Shown here: piece after piece, positions 14,901-60,016 of the stretch
How the letters are laid out: each line of letters starts with the position of its first letter
How positions within the stretch are numbered: the stretch's first letter is position 1
From: Amoebophrya sp. A120
Taxonomy: Eukaryota; Protista; Dinoflagellata
Direction of reading: 5' to 3'
Length of the DNA stretch: 64,000 bases
Assembly (NCBI GenBank): GCA_905178155.1
Contig: CAJINV010000002.1
Span: 634,422 to 698,421 of the forward strand
Translations under genes and position numbers: made by a program
The notes under the pieces: generated by a model
Seen by the model: the letters and a program-made list of their open reading frames with translations, nothing else
Database searches by the model: none
What the model was told of the DNA's origin: nothing

Positions 14901-17900
14901 CGACATAGAGAGGTGAAGAACGAAAAAGGGCGACACGCGATCTGATTTTTTGCACGATGTTTGCACTAGAGACAGCTGCACTTTTATCCCGCCCAGCGAG
15001 GCGGCGAAGACGCGACGCACTGTCTGAGAGGATATCGACAGACCCCTCTTGATCAGCCCAAGCAAGAAGGGGCAACGAGTCAACATTTCTGATCCGACGA
15101 CGCAGACGCCACTGTGCACAACAGATCCGCAATTTATCTCATAAAACCGGTCCGAGATCTTCGCTGTTTTTTTGAGTTTTGTGCTATCTAGTTCTAGACG
15201 TGGATCTTGCGCGATTTGGGAAAGTCGCAAGCACGTCGCCGCGGAAGCTTTTGACTCGTGCCCTGCGTCATTATTTTTGGATTGGCGTCCTGCTGTTCAT
15301 AGCTCCATGTGGTCAGATTAAATGAGTCAGTTTTTTAGTGGGGGAATGTCGATCAGATCAATTTGCGCGGCCTTTCAGGCGGACGCTATCGCTTCGCAGA
15401 TGGAATAGGGGCCTCTGACTCTTGGGCAGCGATTTTCGTGATCGAGTGGAGGCATTGCCTCGGAATTCAGAAAATAAAGCATCTCGCTTGCAGATCTTTC
15501 TAGGTCAGTGCTTTCTCGCTGTCCATCGACACTTCTTGCTATCCATCGCAACATAATCTTTCGAGAAGATCTTAGATCTTGCTATGCGTCGAATATCTCT
15601 TTTCTTGTTTTTCCTAGATCCTCCTATCCATCGAGAACGACCCAAGCTGCCACGGGCAGCACTCGAGTCCTGAATGCCACGGCATCATCGAAACACCCCG
15701 GATCCAAGATCCAACGCCCCTTCAGAGACTGCGCCATACTCATTGAAAACCACTTTCTTAGCAGGCGAACCGGCAGGACGCCCTTCGTGAGCGGATTTTC
15801 ATTTTCTGAAAATTTATTTGGGTAGAGCCGAAGCCGAGTCTAGGAGCCGACTCATCGACCACGAGAAGGCTTACTTTCCAGTGTTAACGACCTAGCGAGG
15901 TCAGCGATCTACTTATTGCAGCGTCTTCACCTACCTCTTCAGACCCGCGGTCAAGTGCTTCCAGCATCGGCTGAATTCGCAGAGGTAGCTCGTGTAGAGA
16001 ATTTTGTCCCGTAGATCGTTGCCTGTCCAGTTTTCACCACGGCGAACGTCGAAAACTTTGCGGCAGTTTGGCGCTGCTTCGGGGTTTTTCGTCATCCGGG
16101 TCCGCATTCGCACGAAGAACTCCAGGGCGTTATCTGAAAAAAATTGCAGGTCGCACTTTTTCTTTGTTGCCGTCGTCGCGACGTTTGGGTAGTCCGGACG
16201 GAAGCAAAGATTGAGGGTGCGACGTGGGCCACCACCAAACACCAGCGTCGATTTCGATGCAACGCGCAGGCACCCCGGCAAACGCTCCGCTTCCGGGTCG
16301 CGGTCCAAGTCGTATGAACCCTGCATCCAGAGAATGAACTTGGAGGCCGTCCAGACACCGCAACAATCCACCGCCTCCTTGACCAGGTCGTTTTTTTCGA
16401 CTTTTTCGCCGTTTCGCCCGCGCTTCTTGAACCGCGCAGCCTTGTCGTCTAGCTGGCTCCACAGCTCTGTCTCCGCGGCTGCGACATACTTCTCCGATTC
16501 CTTACTCCGCCAATACTGGTCTTTCTTCCAGTAGCGGCCCGCGTTTTCCGGCACCCGCATCAATGCCTTCGCTGCAGTTTCAAACTGCGACGCCGAGATG
16601 TGCCCGGTTCCTGGGAACCACTCCTCGAGGTCGGAGATAAAATTCACGCTCATCTCCCAGCAGCACACCAAAGTGGTCCTGACCCGATCCTGCCAAGCGG
16701 TTCGAGAACTCTTCACCGTGCGATTAATGAGCTGCAGCCGCCGGACCGCCACAGAGTCTGAATTTTCCGCCCTGCCTTTCGTTGCGCACCAACTGTCAAC
16801 CGCCTCACCTGTAATTGTCACTTCATCACGAATGACGTCGCCATCCAACCGCGGGTCATCACTCGTTTCCCAACACCCGAGCTTGCGGTAGACCGGGACG
16901 ATGATCGTCTCGCCAGCAGGCGGAGAAAGCGTGGCGGCTTCTGGGTCTTTTTCTAGGCGAAGCAAAAAGTTGCACCACCTCTCCTCGACGAAGAAAAATA
17001 GAGGCCAGAAGTGGTCCGCCTCTGGTGCGAATAAAACATCGCGGGGTGTGCCTGTGCCGGCCATGACGGAAGTCGGCTAAGGCAGAGGTCACTCATAGCA
17101 CTAGCTCACGCCAAGGCAGAAGTCAGGTAGCGTGACAGCCTCGAAAGTAGCCTCTTGGGAGAGCAACGATGGATGGAAACGAGCGGCGGAGTCATATTGT
17201 TCACTATCAATACCAATTTTTTGAACTACGAACCTGCCTTCAACACTGCAGCGCATGGATGTTGCGCGTTTCCAGCCGCCACCCCACTAGTAGCCGCGCG
17301 TTTACTGTAGCACGAGCCAAAAAGTCACGCGGTGGTGTAGTGTTTTGCCGGTTAGTTCGTATCTGTCTCGTGCAGTATCTCTATCTTGTTCTTTCTTTGG
17401 ATCTCGTGGCATCATTGCAAGGTGACGAAGAGAAAAGAACGAAAACTAACGCACGAGAAAACACAAAGGCCAGAACCAGCGCACTCTCTGGCCAGGATTC
17501 ACTGCGATCCAGAAAGAGGTGGCCAGAAGGAGCAACCTTTTGTTACGAACACGCAGCCCGTCGGTCGGTGGTAAGGTTACTTACAAAGGCTTTTCTAGAA
17601 AGAAGGCGCCAGGGCTGCCTCCGGCGTTTTGTTTTCATCGTAAACTTTTCCGTCATGTGTATGCTTGTGTCTATGCCCCGGTGAGTTGATTCGTTCATAT
17701 CATGTGGACCCATTTATTTCTCGTTTTTTCTTTTTTGCTTTTGTTCTTACGCAGGACTTGTTTTTTTTTTGCCCTGCTATCTTTCCTCATAAATTTTTTA
17801 TATCTTCAACATAGGAATAAATATAAATATATCATTTACTGATGCTTTACTTCTTCCCCCGAGGCCTCGGGTTCTGCTTCGGGTTTTTCAGACAGGACGA

Positions 17901-20900
17901 CTGCTGCCTGCGAGAGTGCGACGTCGATCCCTAGGTCTGTACGATCGACCTCATCAATTAATTTTAGGCTTTTATCACTTCTACGACCTTCTTTTTCAAA
18001 TTCAATTGATTCTCCTGCTATTCATCGTATTAAAATAGTTTGGAAGTAGCGTTTGCACCTCAATCCAGCTTGACAACTACACGCCCCGCGTCACATTTCC
18101 AAACTCCGTCCGCCGACAACGCGAGGCGCCACGGCGCGGCGCCCACCGGCGCGAGGGAGGGGACGGGGAAAACAGAAACGGGCGCCCGCTGGCGCAGTCC
18201 CAGCGAGCGTGGGGGCGCCCTCCCTTTAGCAGGTTCGGGCGCGTGAGTTTCTGCCGGGAGGGACAGACAGGGCCGTGACTGGGTTCTGGGCTGCTAGACC
18301 CGGAGATGGGCGGCCCGAGCGGCAAAGCGCGCGCGAGGGGTGCGCACAGTCTTCGCAGGGCCGGATAAACCTCGTCCTCAAGGCGACCGCGACAGTGGCG
18401 CATTTCCAAGCGGTACGCCATCAGACGCCCCGCCCGACAGCTGCCCCAGCCATCTGCGAGTTCCGGTATGCTGGCGCTGCCGCCCTGGCGCTGTTGTTGC
18501 TGCATTGGCTTTTCGCAGCCAGGGTTCGCACGCCGCAGCTACCCTGCTGCGCGCACCTTTTGCAGCCAAAACAGGGTCTAATGCTGAAAACGTCAGCTCG
18601 GAAGGCTCGCGAGCTATCGAAACGGCAAACCGCTCGCGTTTTCCAGCTTTCCACGCAGAACGAGGGCCCTGCCAGTGCTTGGAGCGCAAGAAGTTTCAGG
18701 AGCGCAACACAACTTCCGCACGAGTAGAGAAAATTATATTTTTGAATTACAACGAAAAAGATCACCAGGAGCAAACCTCCTCCTCCTCCTAGTAACCACG
18801 CAAGAAATATTAATATTTTTCACTTTCTATTTTTTCTTTCATAAGTTGTAGACGAGCAGTCTATGGCTCCGGGGAGATGAAAACTCACGCTTAACTAACC
18901 TATGCCTTCAGTGTCCGCGATCCAGATAGAATTATTTTCTACTTCAATATATACTTGCAATTTTTTTTTTACTGTTCCTGTCGACGCCATCGCAAAGCTT
19001 TGCGCTTTTTTTAATTTTTCCTATCGTGCCAGCAATCTATTTTTTATTTATTATTTCTTCATCTACAAAGTCATGCTGTCGCCAAAGTTTGCTCTAGTTT
19101 CCAGTCTTCTCATGTCTGTATCGTAAATCTATCCGCTCGCAAATCAAGACTGAAATACTCGCTTTCGATCAAGATGGCGAGTATGCTGCATGGAGATGGA
19201 ATAGATACATCGCATGGTCGATCCATGAAGAACAACTCGATCCATGGTTATAGACTCGATCAATGGAGAGGAACTCAGTGGTCGCGCGGAAAAATAGAAG
19301 TAAGCGCTGAAAGAAGTCAGCTACTTTTTCCTACTTACAGAGACGATAGTAAATTGATGAGAAGTTATTCATAAACTAATCATATTATCGACGATTGCAT
19401 CTAGTTTATGATCAAATCATTATCAAATAACTTCAATGCTCATGATCATCGCGCTTTACTTCCTCTTTCCGGCGTGCTTCATCTTCATCTTCGTTGCACC
19501 TCCTTGATCTTGTTCCCCCTGCCCTTCATCGGCAGCTGGGTCCTCCTCCACCTTGACCTTGAGCGGATTCTTGTTCTTGGTGTTTTCTTTCCGCACCGGC
19601 GACTTATTTTTGTTTTTCTTCCCGGACGCGGACCCTGCAGCGGTTGGCTCCTCCGGGGCCTGCGCGACCGGAATCTGCTCCTCCTGCTGCTCCACCGCGA
19701 TATTCTTGCTGCTCTTGCGGTTCGGTTTCTTCAGCGGGGTCATCAGCTGAGCGTTGGCGGTGACGCTTTGTTTGTTCACCCGCTTGTTGTTCCGCTTGTT
19801 GTTCCCGTCCGCACCAGCAGCCTGGAACTGGATGTTGTCCTCCATCACAATGTCCTCCTGCATTACCAGGTTGGCCGGGTCGCGGGCATCTTTCGCATCG
19901 ACGTTTTTGCTATTCTTGCTCCTCATCGCTTTCATTTTCGGAAACTTCGGCTCCGCCGGCAGTCCGGCCCCTTCGGAAACATCCAACTCGTACCCAGCCA
20001 GGCCGTAGGCGCTGAGCTCCTGGTCGGTGTTGGTGGTGGTAGTGGTGGTAGTGGTTGTGGGGACGCCGAAGCTGCGGATGAGCAGCCTGGCCTCCGCCGC
20101 CCTCGACGGAGAGATGATGCCCATCCGCTGCACTAATTCGTCGATGTCGTCCTCCGGCTTCCGGACTGGACTGGATTGCTTCTTTTTGTTTTTGGTCGTG
20201 GCGCTCGGGGTCTGGTCGTCCAAAATCGGGTTGTCATCGATGTCCGGCCCCTCCGAGCCGAGGAAATTCAGCTCCGCGGGTTCTGCGCTTCCCTTCTTCT
20301 TTCGGCGACCCCGCAGGGCGAGGAGCTGTTTCCCCACAGCGGTGGTGTTGTCGAACTCCTGCCAGTATGAACTGCAAAAGTAGCGCACTAGTATAAATTG
20401 CATTACAAATCGGCTCAGCATTACAAATTAAATGTGTAATGCTGATTTCTCTTAAGACCTAGATTTGGAATGCATAGCCGCAATTAGTACGAGTGCGATA
20501 CTTTTGCACAGGATACCCAGTGCGGGAATTCTGGGATTATGTCGGAGAAATCCCGCTCCGTCGCGGTGATTTTCACCCTGATTTCCTCCGCTTTTTTGTA
20601 GTTACCTGTTTAGATTCACAAATTAATTGAAAACTTGCAGCCCATGTAGGAGAACTCACACTGAGACTCAAAAGTTGAAAACTTGAGTTTAGATTCAAAA
20701 ATCTAAAGTTGAAAACCCTACAAGTTCAAGCACAAGCACCGAGTTCAAGCGCAAGCGCCTACAAGTACCTACAAGCTCAAGTACCTACAAGCTCAAGCAC
20801 CAGTGCGAGCGCATTACAATTCCCAAGTGCAAGTGCGTACAACTTCCAGCACAAATGAAACCCTACAAGGGTACAAGATCAAGTACCTTGTTCCCCCAGC

Positions 20901-23900
20901 TCAACAATTTTCGCGATGTCCGGCTGCTGGATATCCTTCAGATGCTTCGAAAAACCCAGCACGAAGTCCTTCCATCCACCGTTTTTGCTCTTCGCATTGA
21001 AGGCGGCGACCGCTTTGTACACCTCCTGCCGGTCTTCCGCATATTCGGCCAAACTGGTGCGACTCTTCACCGCACCGACGCACTGCGCCAGTACGTGAAC
21101 CCACGGGTCGTACTTCGAGTCCTTGGGCTTGCCCTGCTCGGTCCACAACAAACCGAGCGGGGGGCAGAATTCCTCGTTCGTCCGCAGCTGTTTCAGCAAC
21201 AGCTGGTGCTCCGATTTCTTCGCCGCGCTAACCGCCCCCGGCATCAGCTGTTCTATGCACGACAAGAACTGCTGATGCCGGGAGAGGAAGCGGGCGGGCA
21301 AGAAATAACCGTCCTTGCTCAACATACATTCGTGAAAACCCGTCATACCATCCAGGATGGGTCGAAAGTCCTCCAGACCGTCAAGCAACAGGCTGACGTC
21401 ATCGCCCAGCCTCGACATCCATTCGAACTTCTGCGCCGGCTGGATGATCTGAAGTTTTGGCTTGGGTTTGGAAATAAAAGCACTGGCTCCGGGTGGGCTA
21501 CAACAACTTGCCTCGGTATCGCCGAAACAAAAAAGCCTTCGCTTGCCAACTAAAAACAAGCTTTTTACTGTCCAAGTAGGTGCGGCACTAGAATTAGAAA
21601 AAATAACTTGTACAATTTGCTCCGCTTCCATTCCCGGGAATTCCAGCGCAAAGCACTGGCTCATCACCTGGGCCAGCGTGTACCCGCGACTCGTGATCCG
21701 CCTGCAAATTTCCGGCAAACCCACCAGCTCCGTCTGGTTCCCAGTAGCCAACACTTTCTGGCACAGTGCTTTGTGCTCTGCTTTGATTTTTCGCACAGTG
21801 TCCTCATACCGCTCGTAGGTCTTGGTGGGTCCACGGTCCGCTTCGGCCAACTTCATCAGCAACGCGGCTAACTGTAGGAGAGGGTTGTACTATTTGATTT
21901 ATTTCCGAAACAAACTCCTCATGGTGTTTCTGGAAAAGTATTTGATTGGAAAAGCAACTACCGGCCGTACCGAAGAGCCAAAATTCTAAATCCTACCCGA
22001 GACCATTCCAAAACTAATTCGTAGAAGTACCTCTTCTTTCTTCCCACCGGCCGTCACTTGCGTATTCGTCTGCCCCACGAGCTGCTGCTGCTGCTTATTC
22101 TGCAAAATCGACTGCTTCTGCCCGAGCTGCTGCTTCATCGGCTTCACCGTCGTTGTACTTTTCAGCTTCTTCCCCTTCTCTCCATCATCCTCTTCACCAC
22201 CTTCTGGAGCTTCGTGTCCGCCTTCGAAAAGCTTTTTCGTAAGGTTCTGCGGCGTCACCGCAGCCGCGAGGTTGGACGGCGCTGAATTCGCAGGAGCTTC
22301 GGTGGGGGGCTCGTTGTCCTCCGCGTGCTGTTTTCATAGTTTGCAATTGTTATATCAAAGCTTGGCTATGCGCAACAAGTAGCAGCATGCTTATATTTAT
22401 CGGGGGCGAAAAAAAGGTTTGAAGATATGAAAAAAAACTCATATGACAAACAGCCGAAGAAAGCGAACGATGTGATGATGAGCGAATATTTTTCCCAAAG
22501 CAACAAACTAACCCACCTGCGGCTCGCCCTGCTCTTCCTCCTCGGCCTTCACCCGGTCCATGACCAATTTCCGGATGATCCCCCTCCGCGCTTTTTCTAT
22601 CCCGATCATACCGGGCAAGATGGTCGTGGTTTTTCCCTCTTCCAGCTTCATGCACAGCCGCTGGTAGTACGGCACGTCGAAGACGGACTTATTGGTCAAT
22701 TCGGCGTACGACAATTTCGACATTTGCTCGGAAGTCAGGTCGTACTGCAAGATTTTTTCCTCAGTCAACGGCTTCGCAGTGTACTGCTGGATGTGCGCCC
22801 AGGAGATGTCGGTCCACTGGTAGAAGTTCCCGTCCGAGCCCTGCAAGTACTTATGGACGGGACTGCTGCAGAGGGGATCAAATTGCTCCATATAGAAGCC
22901 TATCAACTTTAAAAATGTCTGGGTCTGGAAGATTCTGACACTTGTCATGCACGTTTTGCATGAGCCATGATGTCTGTGATGCATACCTTAGCAATACAGA
23001 TTTTTTGAGGGCTTCTTGATGCGTATTCCGCATGACAAATGCTTTCTCAGCGTAGCAAAAATTGCACTTCCTTTGGTACTCATGCAAGACAGATTTTTTT
23101 GGAATCCAAATGCAGCATCACGAGTTGCATTCTTCTAGACCCAGACATTTTTACACTTGATAAAGCCACTCACCGCGTCGTTTTCCTGGATGAGCTTGGT
23201 GATGTCCTCCAGGCGAGTGTTCTCGCCTGTTTTCATGTTATGGTAAAAGATGTTGTACAGCGTCTCATCTTCCACTGTGCAGACCAACGGTAAATCGTCC
23301 ACGATGCTGCTACTGCTCTCCACGATGCTGTTCTCACCCGCCTGCTCGCCCTGGCCATCGACCGCATGTTCCTGCTCCTGGTGGGAGGTATGTTCCTCCT
23401 CCTGGTGGGCCGCCGCCGCCGGGCCCTGCTCCTGGTGGGCCGGATTTCCCTCCGCCACATCTTCCCCGCCCGCCTGCTCCTCCTGCTCGGCGCCGGAGAC
23501 CTCCGAACTTTGCTCCAGGGGATAGTCCTCGATCGGCTGGCTGCGCTCCAGGGCGGCCTCCGCGCTCAACAGCTCCTCCGCCATGGTCATCTGCCCAGCA
23601 TCCGTCTGCATGTGCTGATCCGTCTGCACTTCCACTTGGTCATCCGTGGTGGTCGCCGGCTGCGGCTCCTGCTGCTCCTGGCTCTCTTCCGAGTTCATCT
23701 CCGCCTCCGAGTCATCCACCGCATGCAAAGATTCGTCGTTGTTACTATTGGATCCACCAGAAACCGCCGGCGCTTTCTCGGACTCAACATCCTGCTCCTG
23801 ACTTTCAGATTCCGAAGACTCTTCCTCGGATCCGGAAGATTGCTCTTGATTCGACTCCGGATTACTCGCCGCCGCTGCCGCGGGGGGATTGTTCATTTTT

Positions 23901-26900
23901 TGTTGGATGGAGTCGAGATTCCGCTCGACCCATTTTCTTCGTGCGTCGGAAGCGAGGGTTTGCAGGTGTTCCTGGTTGCGCTGTAGTTCCTCCTGCTGTT
24001 TCTGCTGCAGCTGCTCCAGGTGCTGCTCCCGGTACACTGCCGCCTTGTTTCCCTGTGCGCGTCCGTTCGTGATATCCAACAAACCCCGGCAGAGAATCTC
24101 CAAAGGCTTATCAACGCCCCGCGCTTGCAAAACCTTTTATTTTTGCGTTTTTTTTTTGAGTTACGAGATAACAAACAGTGCGCGACTACGAAAGAACAGG
24201 TTCGTCACAAAGCATATCAAGCGCACTACTTCACTGTGAGAAAAACTAGGACTACGGCACTACAAACACTCCACTACTGAAACTAACGTCTACCAAACTT
24301 TCAAAAAACAGAATCTCCATCGTCATCACTACTGTACATCGCAAAACGCCGCCCAGAACGCCGGCTCGCCGTCGAGGACGATCACTGTTCTGTTTGTAGG
24401 GTCCTTTTTGTCCTTTTCCTCCTGCATTTTTGCGATCTTCTTGTTTGCCAACGACACCAACTGTTGTTTCTGGTCGATCAGTATGAAATGCAAAAGTGTC
24501 TGGGTCTGGAAGGATGCAACTTGTCATGCTAAATCTGAAGCATGCAAAAATCTGTGTTGCATGAGTGCCAAAAGCTGTTCGCTTTCAATCTCATGCAGGA
24601 CAGGCATGAGAGAGACCTCACAAACTCTGTCATGCTAGGTTCCGCATTCCAGATCCAAGGGTCATGGAAAACCTGCTGCATGACGAGTTTACACTCTTCC
24701 AGAGCCAGACACTTTTGCACTTCATAGTCAGCAAGTCCAAGACCTGCGGGCTGTTGCTGCACAAAGCAGACTTGACGCCGTCCAGGTCGAAGACCGGGTG
24801 CGATAAGCCCAACCCTTTCCACCTGAAGAAAGGAAATCAACGCGACAGTCATGCTGAAATGCGACAAGCCTAAACCGTCAATGTTGAAGAAAGGAAAAGC
24901 ATAGTCATCATGAAAATCAAAATTATAAGTGCTCGCGATCATGAAAACGCCATAGCTGGCATGAGAAGCCTATCATGACAATACCAGTGTAAAAAAAAAT
25001 TACCAAGTCATAAACGTCTCCACAGTGCAATTGACGGCAACCCGTGCCATTAGGGTCCACATCACCTTGTGGACACCGTGGCGCAGGTCCCGACCGTTGT
25101 GCGGCGCGGCGTTGTAGACATTCTTTTTGAGTCGCAGGGCGAGTTGCTGGAAATTTGTTTTGTCCTTGGACTTTCTGTATGCAGCGCAAACAGAAATGAC
25201 TGGGCCTGGAAGGGTGCAGCCTGTGCCGTTGCATTTGATCACACAGCAAATTAAGCAGTCTGTCATGCGAAAGTAAGTTTGTCCTGCGGAAGTAGGTCTG
25301 TCATGCGAAAATATGTCTGCCATGCGAAAATAAGTCCGGCATCAGCATGCCCACAGAGAAAAAGTCTGTCATGCGAAAGTATAAAAACGGCAGTCATGCG
25401 GGAGCGACATCGTAGAGGACGCGAGTGCCGTGGCTCATGCATAACATGCATCACAAATCCCCACTCTTCCAGGCCTAGACTCATTTTTTTATCTGTCATA
25501 CGGTAATGCTGAAGCACAGCGGGCTCGCCCAAGCGTTCACCTTTGCGTGCGCGGCCCTCGGGGCGGCGTTAACATTCAGCATGAACTGCTTTAACAATCC
25601 GTCGACCCGGTCCGGTTCCTCTTCGTATTCATCCTCATCGCCCAGCTCCGCATTTGAATCGAAGTCGAGGTCGAACGGGTCCCTCATCGCCTTCTTCTTT
25701 TTAGCGTCTTTTTTGGCTTTGGCGGATTGTTCGCAACCTGAGTTTTGGTTTTATTTTGCTAGTCGATTTCTTTGCCACTCAGGGCCATGCGTTTACTCTT
25801 ATGGCGCAGACTGAGTCTAATACTGTGGCATCTTCTATCTACCTAGCTATGTACTAACCATGCAAAAGCTTCGCGACGAGGCTATCAATATAGGAATAGC
25901 TCATCTTATAAACGACAAAGAACTTGCAGCTGCGGCAGCTATGGGCTGCCGTTTTTGTGTGAAAGAGGATAAAAATACGCTGCTGCGCTTCGGTCAACCA
26001 CTGCTGGAACGCCACCGTACCACGTAATTTCCCCACTTGCTTCGCCGTGGGCTTTTCCTGCCGGAAGTGCGTCCTGCACTCGTTCTGCAATCCGAGCGGA
26101 ATCTCTTCCCATTGAAGGTTCAAACTTGACAAATCCTTCTTGGTCAGCCCGACGCCCTTTGCTGCTTTCTGCAGCTCAGCGAGCGCAAACTCGGGAGTAA
26201 ATTTCCACGCCATGGCTATGCTTTTACTTTGTTGTTGTTCAGAATTAAAAGTTTTTTCGAAACAAACGGGTTTTTGAAAATAGATTTTTGGCGCTACGAA
26301 AGCACCCCGTACTTGGCTCGGGTTACCTAAGCAACCTGCTTGTGTTTGGTAATCGAGGACGAAGGTTTTTCTGGGTAGTGGCAGTGGTAGTAGCAACAGT
26401 AGTAACACTAGTAGAAAGAAGTAGCACTAGCAAGCTTGCTAGCTTCTGCAATGAAGGACTTGCTTCCACAAAGAAAAAAAGAGTGACAATCTTATACATA
26501 TCCAGGAAAAAAAGGACGAGCTCGCGCCCACCATGGACGAGAAAAAACGGAAAAAAAGAACCGATGGGAGCACGGAAGTGGTGCTTGCGCTCCTGGGTGC
26601 ACTCGTGTGTCACTCTATATTTCTCAGCTTGCTACTCACAAAAACACGCGGACGGAAATCAATGAAGCGCGCCCACAAGAAGGCAATCGAGCCGCTAGTA
26701 GAGGCTAGGACTTAGAAACGAGGTCGAGCCGCCGCTTCAGTTATTAGGCGCAGCGCAGGCGGACCGCACCTACACAAACAAAAACAGGCTTATGGACCCA
26801 CCAGGAGAAACAACCTAATGTTGTAGGCCAGTGAACATAGATATCTATGCTAAGGCCGCGGGCCTTCTCCAGCCTCCAGTGGCCCGGCCAATTTGTTCCT

Positions 26901-29900
26901 GTTCCCACAAGCGGGGCGTGTTCGTTTTTTCGTGATTTGCAGCTTTTTTTTCGCGTTTTGCAACTTTTTTTTCGCGTTTTGCAGCTTTTTTTTCGCATTT
27001 TCCTTCTTTTTTATTTGTCCTTGCCGGTTTTCGATCGGGTTTTCTCCAGCCAATTGCGGGAAAGCGAATTTCCTTGCGAGTGGCCGGGCAGCCCTCGAAC
27101 GAAAACCCGCAAAACCCGAAAAAAAATGTACAAAACGCAGCAAAAAAATCCCGAAAACGCGAAAAAAGATGGCAAAACGTAGAAACCAAACACTGCGGCC
27201 CACCTGCCGCCGCCGGGTGGCAAAACAGCCGAAGGCACGGCTTCCCAACATTAGGGCAATGGCGGACGCGACAAGACAGATGGCCCGCGGCATCCGGGCT
27301 CGAAGCAAGTCATGAAGTTCCACCACAAATCATGTCCAAAAAAATCAGAATCATCCGCCAAAAAAATCAGAAAAATTCGGCAAAAAATTCGGCAAAGTGC
27401 GGAAAACCCTAAGTGAAACCTAAGTTGAGCCTAAGTTTTTCCTAAGTGAAACCTAAGTTTTTCCTAAGTGAAAGTTGGGCCATACCATGCGGCTTCACTT
27501 AGGTTTGACTTAGGTTTGACTTAGGTTTGACTTAGGTTTGACTTAGGTTTCACTTAGGCCAAAATCCGACCCCCCTCATTTTCGACTTAGGTTTGACTTA
27601 GGTTTGACTTAGGTTCGACTTAGGTTCGACTTAGATTTCAAGTAGCCCTCGCCGGGGTTTCGAGTGGCTGCGGCATGAAACAGGCGCGCGCCGCTTGTGG
27701 AATTTCGGGAGGCCAATGCCCGCCGTTTTTTGCCATTTTCGCAAATATTTTTGCCATTTTCGCAAGTTTTTTTTGCGATTTTCGCAAGTTTTTCTGCCAT
27801 TTTCGCAAGTTTTTTTGCTAATTTCGCAAGTTTTTGTTGCGAAGCTGAGCGCGGAACCGCGAAAAACGAATCGCCGGGAAGGATCCCACCGGCAATGGCT
27901 TGTAGGCCATGAGGGTGAGGCCCATAAATAAAGAGGCCACGCGCCGAAAATACCCCGGGGACCCCGGGCGGCCAGATGTCATGCTTCCCGTCCCAAGCAC
28001 CTTGTTTTTCTGCGTTTCGCAACTTTTTTTCCCGATTTTGCGAAAAAATGTCCGGAAACAAGAAGAAAAGGGCCACCGCTGGCCCCCCGCAAGCCCAGGC
28101 GACGCCCCCGGGGGGGGCGAGGGAATGAGCCCAGGCGCCTGGGCTTCCGGGGGGCCAACGGTGGCCCTTTTTTCCCTGTTTCGTAAGGTTTTTCCGCAAA
28201 AGCGGCAAAAAAAGTCGCGAAACGCAGAAAAACGAGGCGGCCGGGGCCCCCGTCGGCACCCGCGCTAAGTTTGCGGGGAAGGGGAGCGATTCCACGGCAC
28301 CCGGGCGCACGGCCCCAGGCGCACTGCTGAAAAGGGCCACACACTGGTCCCGGCCGCGCGCCTTCTTGCCTTTCTCGATTCCGACGGGCCCGCGTTCATT
28401 TTTCGCGATTTGGCCATGAAAAAGCCCAAAAACGCCAAAAAAAAGGGTAGAAACGCAAAAAAAAATGCGCAAAAGCGCCAAAAAAACCCCAAAAAAGCAA
28501 AGTCCAAAGCGCCAAAAGCCCAGGCGACACCCCCGAGAGGGAAGGGGGAGCAGCCCAGGCGCCGGGGCTCGCGGGGGGCCAACGGTGCCCCTTTTCTTGC
28601 TGTTTCCCAACATTTTTCCGCAAAATCGGCAAAAAAAATGGCGAAACGCAGAAAAACGAAGCGGCCGGGAACCCCGTCGGCGGCCGCGCTGAGTGCGCGG
28701 GAAAAGGAAGCAACCCCACGGCCCCCGACGAAATGCTGAAGAAGGCCGCAGCCCGGTCCCAGCCGCCCGCCTTCTTGCTTTTGCGGATTCCGGCGGGCCC
28801 GCGGTCATTTTCCGCGGTTTTGCAAAAAAAAGCCCAAAAACGCAAAAAAAAAGCCGAAAAACGCCAAAAAAAAGCTGCAAAACGCAAAAAAAACGCCAAA
28901 AAAAGTCCAAGCAAAGCGCCAAGCGGCTTGTTTCTCTTTTTCTCTGAAATGGCTCCGGTCGCGTCTTGCACAACCTCAAAAAATGATCCTAAGTATTTCC
29001 GGCAAAGAATGATCTCCAGAGATCACATTCGCCATACCATAGACCTCACCTTGTCGTCGGTCTTTCAAAAGTGGTTTCGTTTTAGTAATGCTTCGTCAAA
29101 TCCTTTTCGCGGTCTGTCTCGCTCTTTGGATCGCTGTCTAAATTGCTGCTGAGCTTGATTGATTGATGCTTCCAGCAAAGCTCTCCATTCAATGATAACG
29201 AAGCACGACGCGCTTCAATATCCTCGGGGGGCACTCTCGTATTGCAAACGCGTTGAATTACCATAGCGCCTCATAAAATGTTGAATAAATCAGCAGAACG
29301 CCCCAAAAAAACCTTGCATCTGGTGTCTCTCGTTCGCACGACGGCTGCTGGCTGGTGTCATTCCGGCGGCAAAAGGGTCTCTCGCGGTTGCGCTTTGGCT
29401 GCTGGCTGCTTCGGCGCGGGCCCGGCCCCCGGCGCCACGATAGCGCGACTTCCAGCTTTGGCTTTACCGCCCGCTTTCGGCTTAGCCTTTACTCCCGGCT
29501 TTGCACCTGTTCGCGCCGTGGGTGCCGTGCGTCCAATGCTGCCCGGCAGCGCGGACGGAGCCGCCGCCGGGGGTGGCGCAGTCCGGCTCGGCTCGTTTCC
29601 GGAAGCTGCGAGCAGTGGCTGGGCCGCCTGCTTCCCTATCGGCTTTGCGTGCTGTTTTTTCGGATTCTGCTTCTGCTGGGCCTGCCCCCGCGCGGCGCCC
29701 GCTGCAGCAGCCGCTGCGGCGGCGCGGTGCTTTTCCAGCGCGACCGCAACTTGAGTCAGGGTGGTCACCGTACCCAACGTAACCTCCTTCAACCTGGTGT
29801 AGGTGGCCACGCGGCCATACTTTCCGAGTTTGCTACCAACTATGGAAGCCAGGGGGCGGGCGTATTTTTCCAGCTCGCTCTGGATGTACTTCAAGCGCTC

Positions 29901-32900
29901 CTCTGCGGTCCCGAACTTTTGCGTTACGTCGCCACGCTTGAGAGCTACGTCCAGAAGGAGAGACACGCGGCAGGCGTACAGCCTCGCCAGCTTCCACGCG
30001 GTGTCGGAAGTCTCCCGCTTCAGCTGGTAGTTGAATGTCCGCACGCCGAGCTGAGACCGAAGGCCGAGGATCTTGCGGATCGACTGTCCGTACTGTGGCA
30101 AAGCGCACAAGACCGGAAGGTACTTGCGGTAGACCGGCTCCAACGGCTCCACCTTGACGCTCCTCTCGCTGCTTATTGTTATGGAGAAGCCCCGGTCGGT
30201 TGCGCCATGCCGAACTGTTAATCTCTCTGAACGGAGACGACGCTTCCGCTCTGCCGTCGAAAGCAAGTGCAGGTATTGGCCCCGGGCTTCCGGGATTCCG
30301 CGCACGGCGTCCTTTTCTTCACCACTCGACTCCTGCTCACTCGCGGAGCCTTCCTTCTCACTCGCGGAGCCTGGACCTGGGCCTGCGCTGCTGGAGGTGG
30401 CGGACGACGTGGCTGCGGACGACGACGTGGAGACCTCGCGCTCGGCCGCAAGCTTCCGCGCAGGCGGAGCCGCGTTTTCTGGCCTTTTCGATTTAACTTT
30501 GCGAGCCGCAAGACCGGCTACCTTTGGCTTTTCGGGTAGAACAGAATCCCAGGCCATCAGCGGGTTCCGACGGTTAGAACCGCCCAGACTCTTCCCGCTA
30601 TCTTCGTCGCTGCTGCCAAAGTCGATGTCTGCTTTCTGCACCAGCTCGACTTCGCCGCTTCTGGGAATTTGCACAGTAAAACTCTCTTCCACTGCTGCAA
30701 CGCCACCGCCTTCAAGCCGCACGGAATGAAGGCGGATTTTCTTCTGGTCGAAGAACCGCAGGCGGTTTCTGTACTCGGGTGAGCAGAAAAACGCGTCCGC
30801 CGCAAGTGTCTCCGGCAGTCGCACTTCTTTGAGGTCCTTCTCCGCGTCGTAAATCGGGCTCACCATCACGCCGCCGAAGGCGTACGGTGAGCGCGAAATG
30901 TAGTACACTAGGCAGTACGCCGGAAAGCAGGCAGCGTCTTTGAAGATTTTGTTTGCGGGGACGAACACAAGATCGGCGCTCTGCTGCTGCTGTTGGCCGC
31001 CGCCCGGTGCTGTGTCTTCCCCGCCGTTTCCCTTGGGCCGCACCCCGACGGAGAACTCGATCAAAATGGCATTTTCGGGTCGGGAGGAAAAAAACTCGTC
31101 AACCAACGGCATCTGATTCTGAAACAGCTCACCAACCTCCACTGCCTCGCGCCGCCGCTCCTGCACTTCGTATATCCAGGCCGCAAGCTTTCCCCAATTC
31201 TCTTTACATGACCGGGAGGTTTGGACCCAGGCGCATAAGCGCTCGACCCCGGACGGTGGAAAGCGGTACAACTCCGTCGCGACTATGCCGCGGGCTTCTT
31301 CCAGGCCCGGGATTTTTTCGCCATACAACCGCGCCCGCAGATCATCGCGCTGCTCGCTCTTTTTGTACTGCAGCTCCGGGTTCTTGTCGCTCCTGTGTGC
31401 CTTCTTGCGTTTATTCTGTCCCGTCCCCACGTTGGCGTAGAAGTGGAGCTTCGTCAGCTCTTTCAGTTTGCTGTAGTACCGCAGCTGGCATGATGCGCGG
31501 TCATCTCTCTCTATTTCAGCCCGCACACGCTTCTGTCTCTCCGCCCAGTAATCTGCCTCCGCTTTTTCCTGCGCCTTCACCTGCTGAACCCGCAGCTGCT
31601 CGACCTGCTGCTGCAGATTGACGCGATCCTTATCCATCTCCTCTTTAAACTATGAAGTGCAAAAGTATCGCACTCGTGCAAATGCATTACAAATTTGAAT
31701 TTCCTCAGCATGAAAAATAAAATAAAAATTTGTAATGCGCATTTGCCTTAAGAAAAACATTTGTAATGCATGATTGCAATACGAGCACGATACTTTTGCA
31801 CAGGATATAAACTTCTGGCCAACAATGCCCGTTTTCCCTTTTTTGTACAAGTTCGAAACACTGACGACGCGCTTCTTCTTTGCAAGCTCTGCAGCAGTGT
31901 ATCCGCCCGGAAGGACCGGCGACTTCGATGTGGAATCGGATCGCTCTGACTCGGACTGCGATAACAACTCCGACCCAGATGAGAGATCCGGATCGAAATC
32001 GCCGTCAGAGGGCTCGCTTCCGTATTTCTTGTAGTCCTTCGCATTCAAGCGCCCCCGCAAGGCGTCCTGCCGGATGAGAATGGAAGAAATCCGCAGTATG
32101 CCACGGTAGGCAGACTGGAACTCCTGCTGCAGCAATTTCCCCCGTCCTAGCTTTTGTTCTGCGGTCGCCTGCGTTCTCGGGCACTGGCACATCCCAGCCA
32201 GTACCATGTCAACGAATTTTACTCGCCGGCTGTGATCCGAGATCCGAAGCAACTGCTTCCTCCAGATGGTCAAACACACAGAGCCGCACGAATTCTCTGG
32301 GAACTCGGGAGCGTGGAAGAGGAATTTGCGAAGATAGGTGGAGCGCTGAGATTCCTGGCCCGCTTCCGGTGAACCGTTATCCAAAGCCGCGGCGGTGTTG
32401 TATTCGAGACAAAACTTCTGGAACGGGCAGCGATCAACGCTTGCGATGATCATGTGGAACATGACCGCCTCCGCAACGAGGGCGTGCTGCGCCTTCGCGA
32501 GTAGGTCCTTCTTCTTTTCCATCGTCAGGAGAGCTTCGCGCAGCGTCACAAACTGCATCTCCTCCAGAATCTGCGTCTCCTCTTGCAGGACCTGAAACGC
32601 TTTCCGAAAGCGTTTCTCGGCTGTCCGCTGAAGCTCCACGTTGGTCTCGTAAGTGTGCCGCTTCTTCAGAAACGAGAAGCTCGAAAAATCGTCCAGCGGG
32701 TTGGCAAGGTACCCGAGCAGAAGATGCGCGACTCTGTAGCAGGCATGCTGCAGCCCTTTGTTGTTTTTCACCAACTTCCACTCCTCGACCGAAAGGTAAT
32801 GTGGAGCATTGTCGCCCGCGGAAAAGATCATTTCTGTGTACCCGAGTGCGTCAATCACGGCCAGACGGCGGCAGGCGCGACCAAAAGTCAGCCACCTTTG

Positions 32901-35900
32901 GTGGGTGGGCTGCTTCAGCAGTCTGTACAAGGCTACCCAGGCCTTGACAACGTTTGTTTTCTGTTCCTTGCTCTGCACCGATATTTTCAGCGGGACACCG
33001 TCTCCACCCGGGTCCAGCTCCACGTATGCGTCCTCCATTGCTTTCGCAAGATCCCGCTCACGCATGTGCTCCAGGAACCGGCTCCAAGACCCGATGGCGT
33101 GTTGGTTCTTTAGCCTGTGCGCCGCCTCCTGTCCGGGCAGGCCGTTATAACCCGGCCGAATCTGCACAACCTTGTCGGCCTGCTTCTCTACGATCTCGCG
33201 AACGGTGGCAGAGCTCATGTTCATCTGCCTCGCCTGCAGATACGTCTTTTTCTCAATGAGCGGCATGTCCAGCTTCGTCGTATCCAGTGCAAAAGCGTCT
33301 GGGTCTGGAAACGTGGAACTTGTAATGCTGGTCTTGTAATGCTGGCTTGCAGTTGCTCCCCGGCATAACCAACAAAAGCTGCAACTGTTCTTGTCATGCA
33401 GAAAAGCAATCTCTCACGCTGGCTGCCTGTGAGAAAACGTTTTAGAAAGTTTTCACGCTTGGCTGCATTCACAGCTGTTTCCGTCACCCACGTTTTAGCA
33501 TCACAAGTTTCTTTTCCAGACCCCGAACTAGATATCTGCAATGCATACGTTGTAGTTCCGAGTAACTGCGAGGCGTGCTTGCCGATGTTCGCCGTGCTGT
33601 GCTCGTCGCAAGGTACAAAAATCGGCAACCACACCAAGGCTGGGCACTCCCGCTCCATACGATGCTCGACGATGAGGATGGAGCACATTACAGTTGCGCT
33701 TTCGGCGCCATCGCCGGAAAAGATTGCGGCAAAGGGGTCGGAAATACCATTGAACTCTAGTCCGTACGACATCACGGTGTTTGCGAGGCGGACGGCATCG
33801 CGCTCGTGCGGCAAAAGGTCCGGGTGGTGGCTCAAGCGATGCGGGGGCTTGTAGTGGATGTGTATCGGAAGGTTCGGAACCCGTGGCCATTTATTTGGCT
33901 CTTCCCCGTCGACAGCAAACCAGCAGCTGCCGTGGCAGACCGTCCACATTGCGCTCGGGTTGAGCGTCCGCTTCTTCGTCCTGGTGCCCCTCGACGTTCC
34001 GTCAACGCAAAACCGCGTCATCACTGCGCACTTCCCTGCAATTTTGTATGCTTCGCGCAAAGCTTTGGGACTTGCTGTGACCGCGAAGTCACTCAAAAGC
34101 ATCGCAGTCTTCAGGTACCCATCCGTTCGGGGGTTGCTGCGGTAGTTGAAATACTTCTCGACATACCTGCGGATCTTTTTCTGCTTTTTCTTCCGCCGGC
34201 GCTGCTTCGACATCCTGCAAAACCTCCCCATCTTGTTTCGTTTTGTTTTCCGTTTACGCGGCGCTATCTCACAGAAATTTGCTAGCTTATATGAATCTGC
34301 TTGCTGACTCCCGCAGGACAAAGACGGCTGCTGCTGCTCCCCATGCATGACTGAAGTGCGAAGTCCAAATCGTCCCGGGTCTGCATTACAAGCTGCAGAT
34401 AATTCCTATTGTTTTGGAGCACGCAGGTGATGACCCATGCCCTATTCTTCACTTCGTTATACTTATATTAAGACTGGGTCTACAACGAGCAAGAGTTCGT
34501 TGCTGAGAAGCTAGCGTTTTTCTGTCAGATACGTGAACCGCCGTCGCCGGAGCCGTCTCCATCGGACGAGGGCGCTGAACTCAAAGATCGCGATGATTCT
34601 GCTCGCGATGCGGACCCGGAACTGCTGCTCCGACTGCTCTCCGAATCCGTAGAAGAAGACGACCGAGAAGTTTCTGACGACGCCGCCGAAGACGTTGCAG
34701 CCCCGAGCGCCCTGTTTTTGCGGCGCCTTCGCCGCTTGTTCTCTTGTTTTCGTTTCTCCTCCGCCCGCGCTGCAAGAGGTGTGGCCTCTCGTGCCCGCAT
34801 TTTTCTTCGCATCACCGGCTTCGCTTTTCCACCCGCCTTGGCGCGCGGCCGCGGTTTCCCAATTGGCGCCGGAGGCTCACTATCAAATGCGAAAATGTCT
34901 GGGTCTGGAAGACTCTGAGATTTGTCATGCATGTTTTGTATGACAACCCAGGATGGACGTCTGTAATGCACAACCGCGCATCACAGATTTTGAGAGGACT
35001 TCCTGATGCCTACTCCGCATGAAAGAAGAACGCCCTCCCCGCGTAGCACGAACTACTAGACTCCATTTGCTGGCCATGCAATACAGATAGAGTCCAAAGT
35101 TAGCATCACAAGTTCCGATCTTCCAGACCCCGACATTTTTGCATTTGATACTCACCGCCTGCTGACGATTCCACCGAGGACGATTCCTGGTGCGCTACCA
35201 CCGCACGACGAGCAGCGGCAGCGATGTTTGCGAGCGGCTGAGCAGGGTGGCGGTTTGCGCATCCTCTGGAAAAACATCGATCTCCCTGCTTCCGGATTCA
35301 GGCACTGCCTGAGACTTCTGCTTGGCATCACAAGTCGTAGATCCAGACCACATGCATCCATGGAGACACCCCGGACTCGATACAAAAGGAACGAACAGGA
35401 AGCTACAGCTAATATACAAATAGAACAAAACTAATAGTGAACTTTGTCGACAGAAGATCCTACTACGAGTCGAGTGTGTCTCCTCTCACTGCAGCGAAGG
35501 AAGTCAAGGAGAGCTCCACCCCAATGAGCGGAGGGTACTGCTGCAGCCATGCCGATCATTCTACGGGCTATTTGCAAACTCCGACGCTCGCGAGCCTTCC
35601 GAGCGTCCGGAACGACGATACCGTCGCGCTTGGGCAGGTGGTGGCGCCGTCTCTAGCAGATCCGCGAACAAGAAGTGAGCTCCAGCGGGCAGAAACCCGT
35701 GTCGTACAGCCAGAAGGTCGAAAAGCGCAGACGCAACAAGACGAAACGCGGCGACCGCGCCTGCCTATAAGCGCGAGGGCATCTTATTTTCTGGCTCCTG
35801 GTGCAGAAATCGACTCGCATACTGTGACGCTTTTCATTGGCGTCTTGGAGGACGAAGAAACAGAAGTTAGCAACTATAGCGACCCTCTCACGCGAGGACG

Positions 35901-38900
35901 AGCGTACTTCTCTGGAAAAAAAACATCGGCTCTGGGCAAAAAAAAAACGCTCTGAGAAAAAACTACTCCTCTCTTGCGAAGAGGAAAAAAAAAGACACGA
36001 TAGCAGCGAAAACAAAAATCAAAGAAGGGAGGTGGAACCCTGGACCGGGAAAACGCACAGACAAGAAAACACCGGCGAAGCAACGCAGTCCCTGGGTCTA
36101 CCTAGTAAAAAAAACGTCGCTCTTGCCGAAGGGCTGCGCTAGGTAGCGAACCAACACGAGGCTAGCGCCCCTCCAATGACATACGAAAACAAAGTAGCGG
36201 ACCCCTCCAATCACATACGAAAACTGGCGGATCCATGCGTGACGCAAGGACCACTTTTACTTTACTTTAGGACATACAGACATTAGCTCCTGGCTCTGTA
36301 ACTCACGGACAGAAACAGGCACAGGAAAGCGATAGTAATCGCCTCGCTTCAATTTGTTGCGGCGCGACACGGGCGGCCTCAGATGAAATAAGGTTTTCAA
36401 CTTACACTTAGTATACAGCGGAGTTCTTTCGAGTGGTGCCCGGTGCATCTCTTTTCCTTCGGTAGTGCCGCCCTTTCTTTTTCAGAATTTTTTTGCGATC
36501 GAGGGCAGAAGCAGAGCTTTTTATTACTAAGCTTTTCCATTGGTAGGCTTGCTGCGATGGATTCGCTTTCAGTTAGTTTTGTTTTCGTGAAATCAAATTC
36601 AATCATTGGTAAACTCATTGGTATCAATCTTAAACCGATATGAAAACTCGTGCTAAGCGACACAGATATTTTTTGCTGTGTCTATTGTGGGCGAGCACGA
36701 CTATCAACCCACCTATTCCTATTTTGTAAACTTCGAGTCGCGATTTTTCTGCTATTCTAACATACTTCGACCACCAATAAACTATAGGCATGGCGTCACC
36801 TTATTAATTTTGTTCATCACCCAGATGGAGTTGCTTGCTTTTCGTAATTTACATACTTTTTTTTTCACATATAGCGCCACTCTTCTCATGATCCACTGCG
36901 CCGCTTCTTGCCGCTCTGTTCCGCCGCCCCCGCCACTTCTTGCTCCGCTTGTTGTGGCCGCTTCGGCGACCCGGTGCTGGAAGACGCGCGCCGGTACAAC
37001 AAGTCGACGATACCTGTGGAAGCAGGGGAGTCGTCCATTGCTTAGCACCGACCACATCCTGGAGCTCAGGAGCAGCGCCATGCAGCTTATTCATAGACTA
37101 CTAAAATAAATTTGCTTTTCTAAGTAATGTCTCTTTCTACATGATGAATAGGCCAAAAACAACCAAGGTAGTTTTAGCACCTTCCACCGCCCGCTCAAAG
37201 AGGAGCACTCCCTCGTCCGATATCGCGAGCGCATGCGCCTCCAACTCCACGAGGAAGGGGCGCAGGATGGGGGCGGACATCTCCACTACGTCGGCCAGGT
37301 CTGCCTCCGGGAGATGCGGTGTGCGAAACCGCCGCTGGATCATGTTGATCAGATCCGCCAGCACGACATCGTCCGCCACGGTCGGAACCTGTTTGGTAGT
37401 TTTTTTTCCGAAGATAGAAGGGCAGCGCGTACGCTGCTTTCATGTCTAGTAAGTAACTTACTATGAAACGCAAGCAATAAATGTGGAGCTCTGACATGCA
37501 AGTTAGTAGCTCTTTCATGTGGAGTTCTGAAACATAAGGAATAAAGCCTTTTCATGCTGTTTCTGTCATACGAGTGCAAATGCAGAAAGATACCCCGCCC
37601 GGGTAGGAGCGCGCTGCGAGCCCGGGTAGGAGCGCGGGTAGGAGCGTTGCGATCCCGGGTAGGAGCGCGTCAAGTGCGCCGCCGACCTGGGAAGAGTGTG
37701 AGAGTGAGTCAATTTATTATGGCTCAGTTTGACCACAACAATGTAAAAAGTAAGCGAAAAACACATGCAAAAGTTTATTGCTTGATGCAAAAAAAAGCGA
37801 CGCAAATCAATATAAATATTAAAAAACGAAGTGAGTCACAACTTTTGTCGAAAGTGCAAAGTTAGTAGCATGCTGCTAATGTCCCGACCAAGCAACGCGT
37901 CGTGGATCAATGACCTATGCCGAACGAAAAGAAAGAAGCAGGGAACAGATAGGTGAAATTAATATACTTCATACCATCAATCCGCCCTCCTCCTGCAAAT
38001 TACGCACTTCCACCGCAGAGCCTGCCGACGCCGAGTCCTCGTCGCGTACCTCGGGAAACGGCGGCGCGATGTACGCGAGGCCGATCGGATCGCCCAATCC
38101 GGCATCAGAGGGTGTATCTTCTCCAGGGGCGGGACAATCCGCGCTCAACGAACGCGGACGCGTGCTCGTGGCTTGCAGCTGCACGATGACGCACTTGTTC
38201 AGGGTGCACGCGTTTAGGTTCACGCTCATTTTATGTTGTTTTTTTTTAGAAAAGGAAGATGGATGGATCTAGCTGCTAGAGGTAGAGCCAATTTATATTC
38301 AGAAAACGAAGATCTAGCGGCGAGAGGTTGAGAAAAGGAGCATCTATTTGCGAGAGTAGCTACCAAATAAATTTATTATTATTGCGCGGCCCTGCATAAG
38401 CGAAAGTAACAGCGATGCTATTCTAAACGAAAACGCAGCATCAGGCCGGCCATTGCCAGAGCGTGCCCAGGATGCTGCTGCTATTAACAAATAAATTTGC
38501 ATAAGCGGTCGGGCTGAATCAAAAAAAGAACCGACGCATGCGCTAATCAATGCCGGGTTGAAAAAACAAAAAGTGGCCAAGCACTTGGACTGCATTGGAT
38601 TTCTAGCATAACATGGGGCTTGGCGTGCCGGAACTTTGGGAGTGCAGCCGGTTTTTTTCATGAATTAAAAAAGCTCGACCACGCTTACTGTACTAGTAGA
38701 GGCGGCCATCAAGAGTCAATGCTTGCACTCCGCCCGCGATACCTGACACGGACGTTCCCGGGCCTAACATACAAAACATCCATGCCTGGCGGTGCAAAAA
38801 AAGCGGGCTGACATACAACCAGTCCAGACGATGAAAAAAAACGGCGCTGGCAACGACGGCGAAAGACGATAGAAAAAACGCGGTCGTAGACGATGAAAAA

Positions 38901-57996: not shown

Positions 57997-60016
57997 AAGA
58001 TTTTTCTCGAGGCTTGCCAGAAGTTGTGCGGGGAATAGAGCGGGGCCGTCGTGCCAAATGTGAAATCGCCTGTATTTTCCGGGTTGTCTTGGCTTTCACA
58101 AGCAGATTTCCGAAACGCGCACCGAGCAAACGAATAAGAATCTACAACCAAGTCAACCGAGGGCTCGCACACTACCCACAAGCCAATAGTGTTCTTTAGG
58201 CGCAAGCAGAAATAAATCCCGGTAAAATGTAATCCAAAAAGGGCACAATATCCATCAATGTGTTCTGGCCGGACCTAGTCCAGCCCCAGCGTAGTAAAGG
58301 TTCTTTGTGCTTCATCCTAAAGCATCGCGTAAGCCCCTAACGTTTCCCGTGGTGTGGACGTTCCTGATGCGGTAAAGACAAAAGTGGCGCGCAGTTAGTC
58401 AGTGCAGGAACCTAGATCATGCAGCAGCATGCTCTGCGCTTCATTTTCTGAACCCTGCGTCGGATTTCCGGTCCTACCAGTGGAAACTGGGGCGCCATTT
58501 TGCGCCTTTTGATCCATTTGCCATGCATTTTTGGAACTAAAATATGCCATTTTTGACCTGAATCAGGCCTAATTTGAGCTAAAATAGAGCCTAATTTGTT
58601 GAATTTACATGAAAAAGGTAGCTGTACGTGCCAAAAGCGGAGATTTTCCCAGAAGAGCTGCAACGGTCGAAGTCGAAGACGACCACGAGCGTTGTAGCCA
58701 TTATAGTATAGCGAAAACTGTAAAGCCAAATCACGCCAGCAAGGCTACCCCAATGTAAATCTGTAATGCGAAAAGGAAATAAATATAAACCTGAACCCAG
58801 CTCCTGCGTGAAGTGATGCGGAATCGCGCATCTCCTCCAAGCGCGGCCGCGGTTCGTTTCAAATAAAGAAGCGACAACCCTTGTCGCGCTGATGTGTAGT
58901 ATATGCAGCTAACTATCTTCATAGAACAAACCATGCTTCGTTCTTCGCTGCGCGTCAAGTAATCACAGCCAGAAGTTGTGCGCCAGAAGAATCACTGTTC
59001 AAGATTTTTCTGGAGGCTTGCCAGAAGTTGTGCGGGGACTAGAAAGAACGGGGCGGCGGAGAAAAAAGAGTACTCGTCTATTTTCCACGGCAAATGGCTC
59101 ATGGTGTGGGACGAACGCTAGCAGGACAGAGAGAGAGATTGGAGCACACACTCTACGCAAAATAGACTTTCGAAAGATACTAGTGCGAGGCACGGGGCGG
59201 AGCCATCTGGTTATTGGTAGGAAAAAACTTGCAACGCCTACTGTACGCAACACGACCGACGTCTTTCCTTGAAGATCTTTTTCGATCATGGATCTGCGTC
59301 AGGATTTTACTTGCTTTTAATCTTCCGCGCATTACAAATTTAGAAAGAACGCCCACGCGCGTTTATTTGTCAAAAAAAGCCAATCAACACGACGAAGCTT
59401 TCGCGAGCATCAGGTAAAAGCTTAACCTGTTGGATCATGTAGTGAGACCGTGCCAAATGGTAAAAACTTGTCATCTGTGTGTACGAATCGAGCAGGGCGT
59501 GGCGGGCTAAGTAGACACGTGGTCACGCCACTTGATCACGAAAACGCTTAAGACGGGAGCCGTAATAAATGCAAACGGAGCTGCGCGACCGCTACTAAGC
59601 TCAGAGGCAGGACGGCTCAAGCACAGGCGCTCCTACTTGCCACCCATCGCCATTTCTTTCATGATTGCCAATGGGCACCGTTATCAAGTTGGCCACTGGA
59701 CATGACAAAAGCAAAAAAAACTCGCATGACAAATCCACTTATTTGCGTGAGCTCTTGCGTATCCTATTTAAGGCCAAGAAGAACACCTGCATCTCCGCAT
59801 TTTTTGCCAGTGGAGGAAAGGCTACCGAGCCAGCCGCCGTGGGGGCCGACGCATCTGGGACTTTTCTGCGCTGCCACCCTGCCGAGTCGCGTGCTCTCCG
59901 TAGACGAACCTGCTAGACATGTGGGTTGCGTATGAGGGCGTTTATTTCGGTACTTGGAGTAAGATTTTTCTCGAGGCTTGCCAGAAGTTGTGCGGGGACT
60001 AGAAAGAACGGGGCCA
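57997..60016. repeat. Three copies of a ~55-bp motif spaced ~1 kb apart
   Basis: AAGATTTTTCTCGAGGCTTGCCAGAAGTTGTGCGGGGA(C)TAG at ~57997, ~59001 and ~59960. Confidence 0.85.

Follow-up and report, generated by a model that had tools for sequence, protein, structure and literature searches.

Cut-and-paste transposition becomes less efficient as an element grows longer, and how the ends of very long eukaryotic elements are paired is largely open. In bacteriophage Mu, whose transposase-bound enhancer sits near the left end, a further cis-acting site lies in the centre of the long transposon, the strong gyrase site (SGS). The middle position is optimal for this site, which promotes end synapsis (PMC10052514; PMC3820752). 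Among eukaryotes, hAT elements such as Hermes, Tol2 and Ac combine an 8-bp target-site duplication (TSD), short imperfect terminal inverted repeats (TIRs) and subterminal repeats of AAGT plus AT-rich DNA with a DDE transposase carrying CxxH and RW motifs; Hermes is ~3 kb long. Terminal motifs may also occur inside a parent element when non-autonomous elements, for instance miniature inverted-repeat transposable elements (MITEs), are nested in it, as exemplified by the double Ds of maize. Finally, arrays of short motifs are found in the non-coding parts of multi-gene DNA transposons, as in VANDAL with VANC and Spm with TnpA. These belong to the Mutator or CACTA superfamilies and have a separate regulator; VANDAL/VANC-type arrays evolve through tandem duplication, and no midpoint symmetry is described for them in the covered part of PMC5735166. 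Here we describe a 25.7-kb, cargo-bearing hAT-like DNA transposon (14639-40315) in a 64-kb stretch of the genome of Amoebophrya sp. A120 (contig CAJINV010000002.1; hereafter the window), which carries at its midpoint an inverted array of its own subterminal motif. The hAT-like transposase and the subterminal repeats are known features, whereas the midpoint inverted array, set in predicted bent DNA of a 25.7-kb cargo element, appears to be new: the listings from phrase searches of open-access literature named no midpoint array of a terminal motif in a eukaryotic DNA transposon (Repbase-type entries and supplements being outside the scope of these searches), and the element is not described in the covered parts of PMC7789003 or PMC12130899.

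The window contains 25 copies of the heptamer CCTAAGT where 4.35 would be expected, and a count of 25 was reached by none of 100 shuffles (0/100). Two copies lie at the left end, five at the right end and 16 in the centre, and two are isolated (14286 and 28988). The 16 exact central copies (16/25) fall within 27408-27624, and a 17th with one mismatch starts at 27629; outside the ends and the centre, the remaining 25.3 kb of the element and the 38.3 kb of flank hold one copy each. An earlier note on this DNA had counted 17 recurrences at a strict 11-bp spacing, and the count stands with this one inexact copy, but the strictness does not, as the right arm contains one 33-bp step (27552 to 27585) with two decayed slots inside. 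The same note had placed the motif in the TIRs; it is in fact a subterminal repeat, outside the 23-bp TIR tips. Its description of the orientation was borne out: the left central copies are oriented as the left end and the right copies as the right end, and the switch, put at ~27485, has its symmetry axis at 27483, about which the motif orientation of the whole element is mirror-symmetric. This axis is 6 bp from the arithmetic midpoint of the element, which is 27477 as stated there (Table 1).

Measured from the axis, the two arms of the element are 12,844 and 12,832 bp long, or 12,172 and 12,126 bp once six introners are subtracted. The centring survives this recomputation, which the earlier note had proposed: as for SGS in Mu, the site sits at the middle, in this one element with an offset of 6 bp raw and +23 bp without the six introners. 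By arithmetic, the offset becomes ~-140 to +70 bp when a decayed introner-like piece near 25180-25500 (~320 bp, an estimate) and the right 410-bp duplication are also subtracted, and ~+210 bp when only the 410-bp duplication is. The suspicion that the exact centring could be coincidental was thus correct for the 6-bp precision, which is luck; the centring within 1% of element length is robust, but for one site it has chance odds of ~2%.

The DNA on both sides of the array has an unusual predicted shape. When the 64 kb were scanned for 10.5-bp A-tract periodicity, the ten top 500-bp segments all fell within 26501-29250, and the phasing peaks near 27050 and 27820, i.e., ~430 bp to the left and ~340 bp to the right of the axis. 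Coding heptads were rejected as an explanation of the 21-bp A-tract repeats because these run in both orientations and at spacings of 20-23 bp, and no Rfam match was found in 26400-29400. The isolated motif copy at 28988-28994 is followed 40 bp on by the 10-mer GCCATACCAT (29031-29040), which also occurs inside the array junction (27479-27488); the 28988-29040 region may be the remnant of a second junction. A comparable phasing peak is found outside the element near 58550, where a short phased A-tract block (58450-58650) that includes a 21-bp tandem repeat with the word CCTAA sits among three direct repeats of ~55-65 bp (57996, 59001, 59960) and possibly belongs to another element.

The ends of the element, at 14639 and 40315, are real. 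They are bracketed by a perfect 8-bp duplication of hAT type, and the short imperfect TIRs of 23 bp match each other at 19/23 positions (the next best place anywhere in the window reaches at most 16/23) and are accompanied by 2 + 5 copies of the subterminal motif. As in hAT elements, the motif combines AAGT with AT-rich DNA; in contrast to them, most motif copies are central and not terminal, and several open reading frames (ORFs) without identified relatives are aboard.

The gene to the right of the array encodes a DDE transposase. Its 5' end could reach ~35430, the 5' gene structure being uncertain, and an exon at 35155-35430 contains nine Cys. A full HMMER scan started from the exon 31809-33278 yielded 12 proteins, and the nine that were looked up (9/12) are all EukProt proteins of Amoebophrya sp. 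AT5.2, from ~8 loci. The homologs align along 34.1-29.8 kb of the minus strand, and the motifs D, D, CxxH, RW and E, whose order we take to be that of the hAT DDE signature, are conserved across this alignment, with every one of them intact in the window. For homolog P0006, the core was modelled from 14 sequences (predicted local distance difference test, pLDDT, 79; predicted template modelling score, pTM, 0.79), and the model displays an RNase H-like core with a helical insertion domain as in Hermes. When it was compared to 48,161 chains with VIA-align, Hermes came first (Z 12.9, root-mean-square deviation 5.6, 372 residues; next Z 8.4). This model suggests that the encoded transposase is hAT-like with a Hermes-like fold. 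Single-sequence folding of the window's own exon reached a pLDDT of 38. Unlike known hAT transposases, the protein is ~1,500 aa long with a long conserved C-terminal extension, and Pfam searches (32 ORFs, 12 homologs, and a repeat at E 10) gave no meaningful match, to hAT or to its C-terminal dimerisation domain. Rows of the ESM Atlas at 0.85 and 0.83, where 25% and 75% of the members carry PF05699, are no more than leads; a PDB sequence search with the homolog alignment gave no match, word-based protein searches gave nothing new, and none of six pattern matches to the N-terminal core in viral contigs was confirmed. GDNAPHY, considered as a Tc1-like catalytic motif, was dropped because it is not conserved in the homologs.

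Other copies of the centre were sought in the contigs of a DNA run (X1) that may come from the source sample of the window, and in which contig depth is a rough guide. Over the unique parts of the element these contigs show no differences and a depth of 41-44; the coding bins (44-50) are at about the depth of the flank (47), so that no second copy of the genes exists at 85% likeness. At 80% likeness, 20 records fitted 26600-29300, eight of which are listed. Besides the element's own two contigs (depth 43.5-43.8), a separate 73-bp contig of depth 48.7 covers 27445-27517 including the junction, with seven differences (66/73 bp identical); its change at 27477 moves the decayed junction copy closer to the motif. 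A 230-bp contig overlaps it by 30 bp and follows the right arm up to 27558, beyond which it is diverged, and three further contigs among the records listed (220, 349 and 596 bp) carry related arrays. For two loose contig ends, the likeness to the window's flanks, at 27013 and 27707, outranks that of 99.9% of windows taken from the element, and the 42-bp non-repeat block right of the array recurs in another contig, there with a motif-like word before it and a related T-tract behind. These sequences indicate that the same inverted centre is present at at least one other locus, with related flanks on other contigs. At the right end of the element, depth bumps and a contig break in the DNA-run contigs hint at other ends and are not used as evidence. 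A metagenome scan with a three-unit motif pattern found four loci, none of them like the window beyond the repeat. A scan of viral contigs for the inverted pattern gave one locus, in the GC-rich, phage-like contig L005, where the 2+2 motif arrangement lies between divergent ORFs (10001-10062) and is probably a repressor operator; this region has no similarity to the window, protein comparison included.

We tentatively propose, as a reading with somewhat less than an even chance, that the array belongs to the element as a fixed internal component, serving as a transposase platform and likely as the apex of a fold that pairs the ends. Its parts differ in strength. The array probably binds the element's own transposase, because hAT subterminal repeats are transposase sites, with Hermes BED domains binding AAGT and then AT-rich DNA (PMC10368747), and because CCTAAGT plus its linker contains a Hermes-type site; that end pairing is its main role is a more guarded suggestion, which may well prove wrong. 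The transposase would load onto the central array as well as the ends, and the 11-bp spacing would seat its protomers on one helical face, one per turn, while curved DNA and bound protein together would pin the apex of a loop or plectoneme. Given the mirror-symmetric motifs and the predicted bent centre, folding there would set the ends side by side: the element would fold back at the array, and its two ends, 25.7 kb apart, would line up in matching orientation. Such an apex would raise end synapsis, presumably the limiting step as cargo lengthens the element. Superhelical apices are favoured by bent DNA (PMC8478907), and supercoiled plectonemic domains have been proposed for dinoflagellate chromatin (PMC8110477). 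The loose analogy to Mu drawn in the earlier note holds for the central position of a cis site but not for the bound partner, the Mu site being one for host gyrase and not transposase (PMC10052514), whereas the central sequence here, in a eukaryote, consists of the element's own subterminal motif.

Several points weigh against this proposal. The centring is that of a single element and was noticed after the fact; the chance of one site landing within 250 bp of the midpoint is ~2%, and the 6-bp precision cannot have been selected, because introners and the 410-bp duplication displaced the arms by hundreds of bp. The near-invariance of the 7-bp cores of the 17 central units beside their variable 4-bp linkers (1/119 against 20/68 mismatches, four in-phase or adjacent decayed slots excluded) speaks for the proposal, but the contrast is partly circular since the units were chosen by their core. 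The sister loci are visible only as contigs of 73-596 bp from one DNA run, and could be short non-autonomous copies. Curvature by itself is insufficient for apex formation (PMC8478907), the work on dinoflagellate topologically associating domains (dinoTADs) concerns Breviolum and not Amoebophrya (PMC8110477), and extra internal sites can inhibit, as in piggyBat (PMC11707139). As for the transposase, Foldseek with the P0006 core gave no match at E<=0.001 (Hermes was not among the rows shown, which were all non-significant and included RAG1 and Transib). A simple BED zinc-finger pattern, a point of difference from known hAT transposases, is absent from four window exons and eight homologs, hence our label "hAT-like".

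Another account takes the array for a regulatory operator, at which the transposase or another element protein would activate, anti-silence or repress the element's genes, its central place being that of the spacer between the transposase gene and the cargo cluster. The array is located downstream of the transposase gene and ~1 kb upstream of the cargo ORF that comes first on the minus strand (25854-26426), and A/T-tract DNA suits open promoter regions. In the non-coding regions of VANDAL elements, tandem motif arrays serve as binding sites of VANC proteins (PMC5735166), and in a 2026 preprint cognate copies are activated by transposases (10.64898/2026.08.24.746577). Yet VANC arrays are tandem and VANC is separate from the transposase (PMC5735166), and an operator leaves both the mirror orientation about the midpoint and the near-equal arms unexplained; we consider it rather unlikely.

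The origin of the array bears on a further possibility. Read leftwards from ~27570, the block agrees with the left subterminal region (GGATT..TTGGCCTAAGTGA) at 18/20 positions, which makes a derivation from end sequence likely; the array was probably copied from such sequence and later kept and expanded. It might also be a neutral relic of this event, i.e., a mini-element or duplicated end that inserted in an ancestor, lost its tips, was expanded by slippage and is shared with sister loci by descent. Besides the probable copying from an end, the left-then-right orientation is precisely that of an internally deleted copy, and the linkers are uniform within blocks as expected from slippage. On the other hand, no 23-bp TIR tip lies near the array (the best match elsewhere is 16/23), and no direct repeats of 8-9 bp bracket it, either within ~200 bp or, with inverted ends, in 26430-29360. 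Moreover, at the second locus the junction retains ~90% identity, whereas no further copy of the genes exists at 85%, and 16/17 units keep an intact core, so that we hold a purely neutral relic to be unlikely.

That the array is a brake or decoy, titrating the transposase or forming unproductive centre-to-end complexes that limit activity, is improbable: with 17 central copies against seven at the ends, an element body at single-copy depth and a precedent in piggyBat, whose activity is restricted by an internal site (PMC11707139), it has points in its favour, but the piggyBat site is subterminal (PMC11707139) and a decoy requires no central position, mirror orientation or bent flanks. An intact nested MITE, the alternative named in the earlier note, the array is not, since it shares with such elements the left-then-right motif orientation within a parent but has neither TIR tips nor a TSD, and its flanks are common to another locus.

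To the left of the array lies the presumed cargo, whose ORFs have no significant match in Pfam (32 window ORFs) or PHROGs (11 ORFs). The 381-codon ORF at 15931-17076 resembles, by eye and in its C-terminal half (GVWTA...GGGP), helix-hairpin-helix glycosylase-like DNA-modifying proteins, a reading unsupported by Pfam, PHROGs, a homolog search and the ESM Atlas. Short dispersed repeats abound in the window; they have inverted ends, are accompanied by 3-5-bp direct repeats and are of the type of the introners described for Amoebophrya (PMC7789003). Introners of high-copy families cut genes at six or seven sites (20365-35155), and the two in the transposase frame leave the reading frame unbroken; the element has thus been resident in this genome for long enough to be colonised. 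Within the element, 38613-38706 is a small repeat that also occurs at other places in the genome, covered by extra contigs at a depth of ~250 in X1 and also found in X8, a run of another study and by guess RNA. A 259-bp X8 contig of depth 2 matches 25978-26236, in a cargo ORF, with no differences. In the RNA run X4, partial reads fall on introners only, which has no bearing on expression.

Table 1. Coordinates of the element's features in the 64-kb window.
Feature	Position	Strand	Description
Left TSD copy	14631-14638	none	8 bp, ACATTTTT
Left TIR	14639-14661	+	23 bp, starts TA
Left subterminal repeats	14673-14690	+	2 x CCTAAGT, 11-bp spacing
Presumed cargo cluster	15931-26426	-	long ORFs, introner-interrupted
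Cargo ORFs	15931-17076, 19456-20427, 20879-21889, 21986-22333, 22508-24136, 25854-26426	-	
Array left flank	26925-27396	none	21-22-bp A/T-tract repeats in helical phase, both orientations
Array left arm	27408-27469	+	6 x CCTAAGT, exactly 11 bp apart
Inversion junction	27470-27496	none	27 bp, one decayed motif copy at 27473-27479
Array right arm	27497-27635	-	11 inverted copies (10 exact), single 11-bp phase
Non-repeat block	27665-27706	none	42 bp, recurs in another contig
Array right flank	27726-28922	none	phased A/T-tract repeats, palindrome, tandem duplication
Imperfect palindrome	28000-28237		GC-rich, central non-coding region
Tandem duplication	28091-28515 / 28516-28922		~410 bp, copies 78% identical
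hAT-like transposase gene	29358-34405	-	1,538-codon open frame minus introners 33281-33549 and 31651-31812
Transposase motifs	34006-33989 (D1), 33718-33701 (D2), 33610-33599 (CxxH), 32900-32886 (RW), 32168-32154 (E)	-	
Right subterminal repeats	40241-40292	-	5 inverted copies, spacings 11, 11, 11, 12 bp
Right TIR	40293-40315	-	23 bp
Right TSD copy	40316-40323	none	8 bp, ACATTTTT

Few transposases have been found by domain searches in the genus Amoebophrya (PMC7789003), and should the idea of a central hub fail, the locus would still hold a hAT-like element of 25.7 kb whose intact transposase belongs to a family missed by Pfam. It is conceivable, if on the doubtful side, that a giant hAT-like lineage in Amoebophrya solves long-distance synapsis in a Mu-like manner, with its own transposase-bound midpoint array in curved DNA. 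If true, a eukaryotic cut-and-paste element would have an end-pairing hub at its midpoint; such a compact central module would allow a direct test of fold-back pairing outside bacteria, and could serve as a design part for transposon vectors with large cargo.
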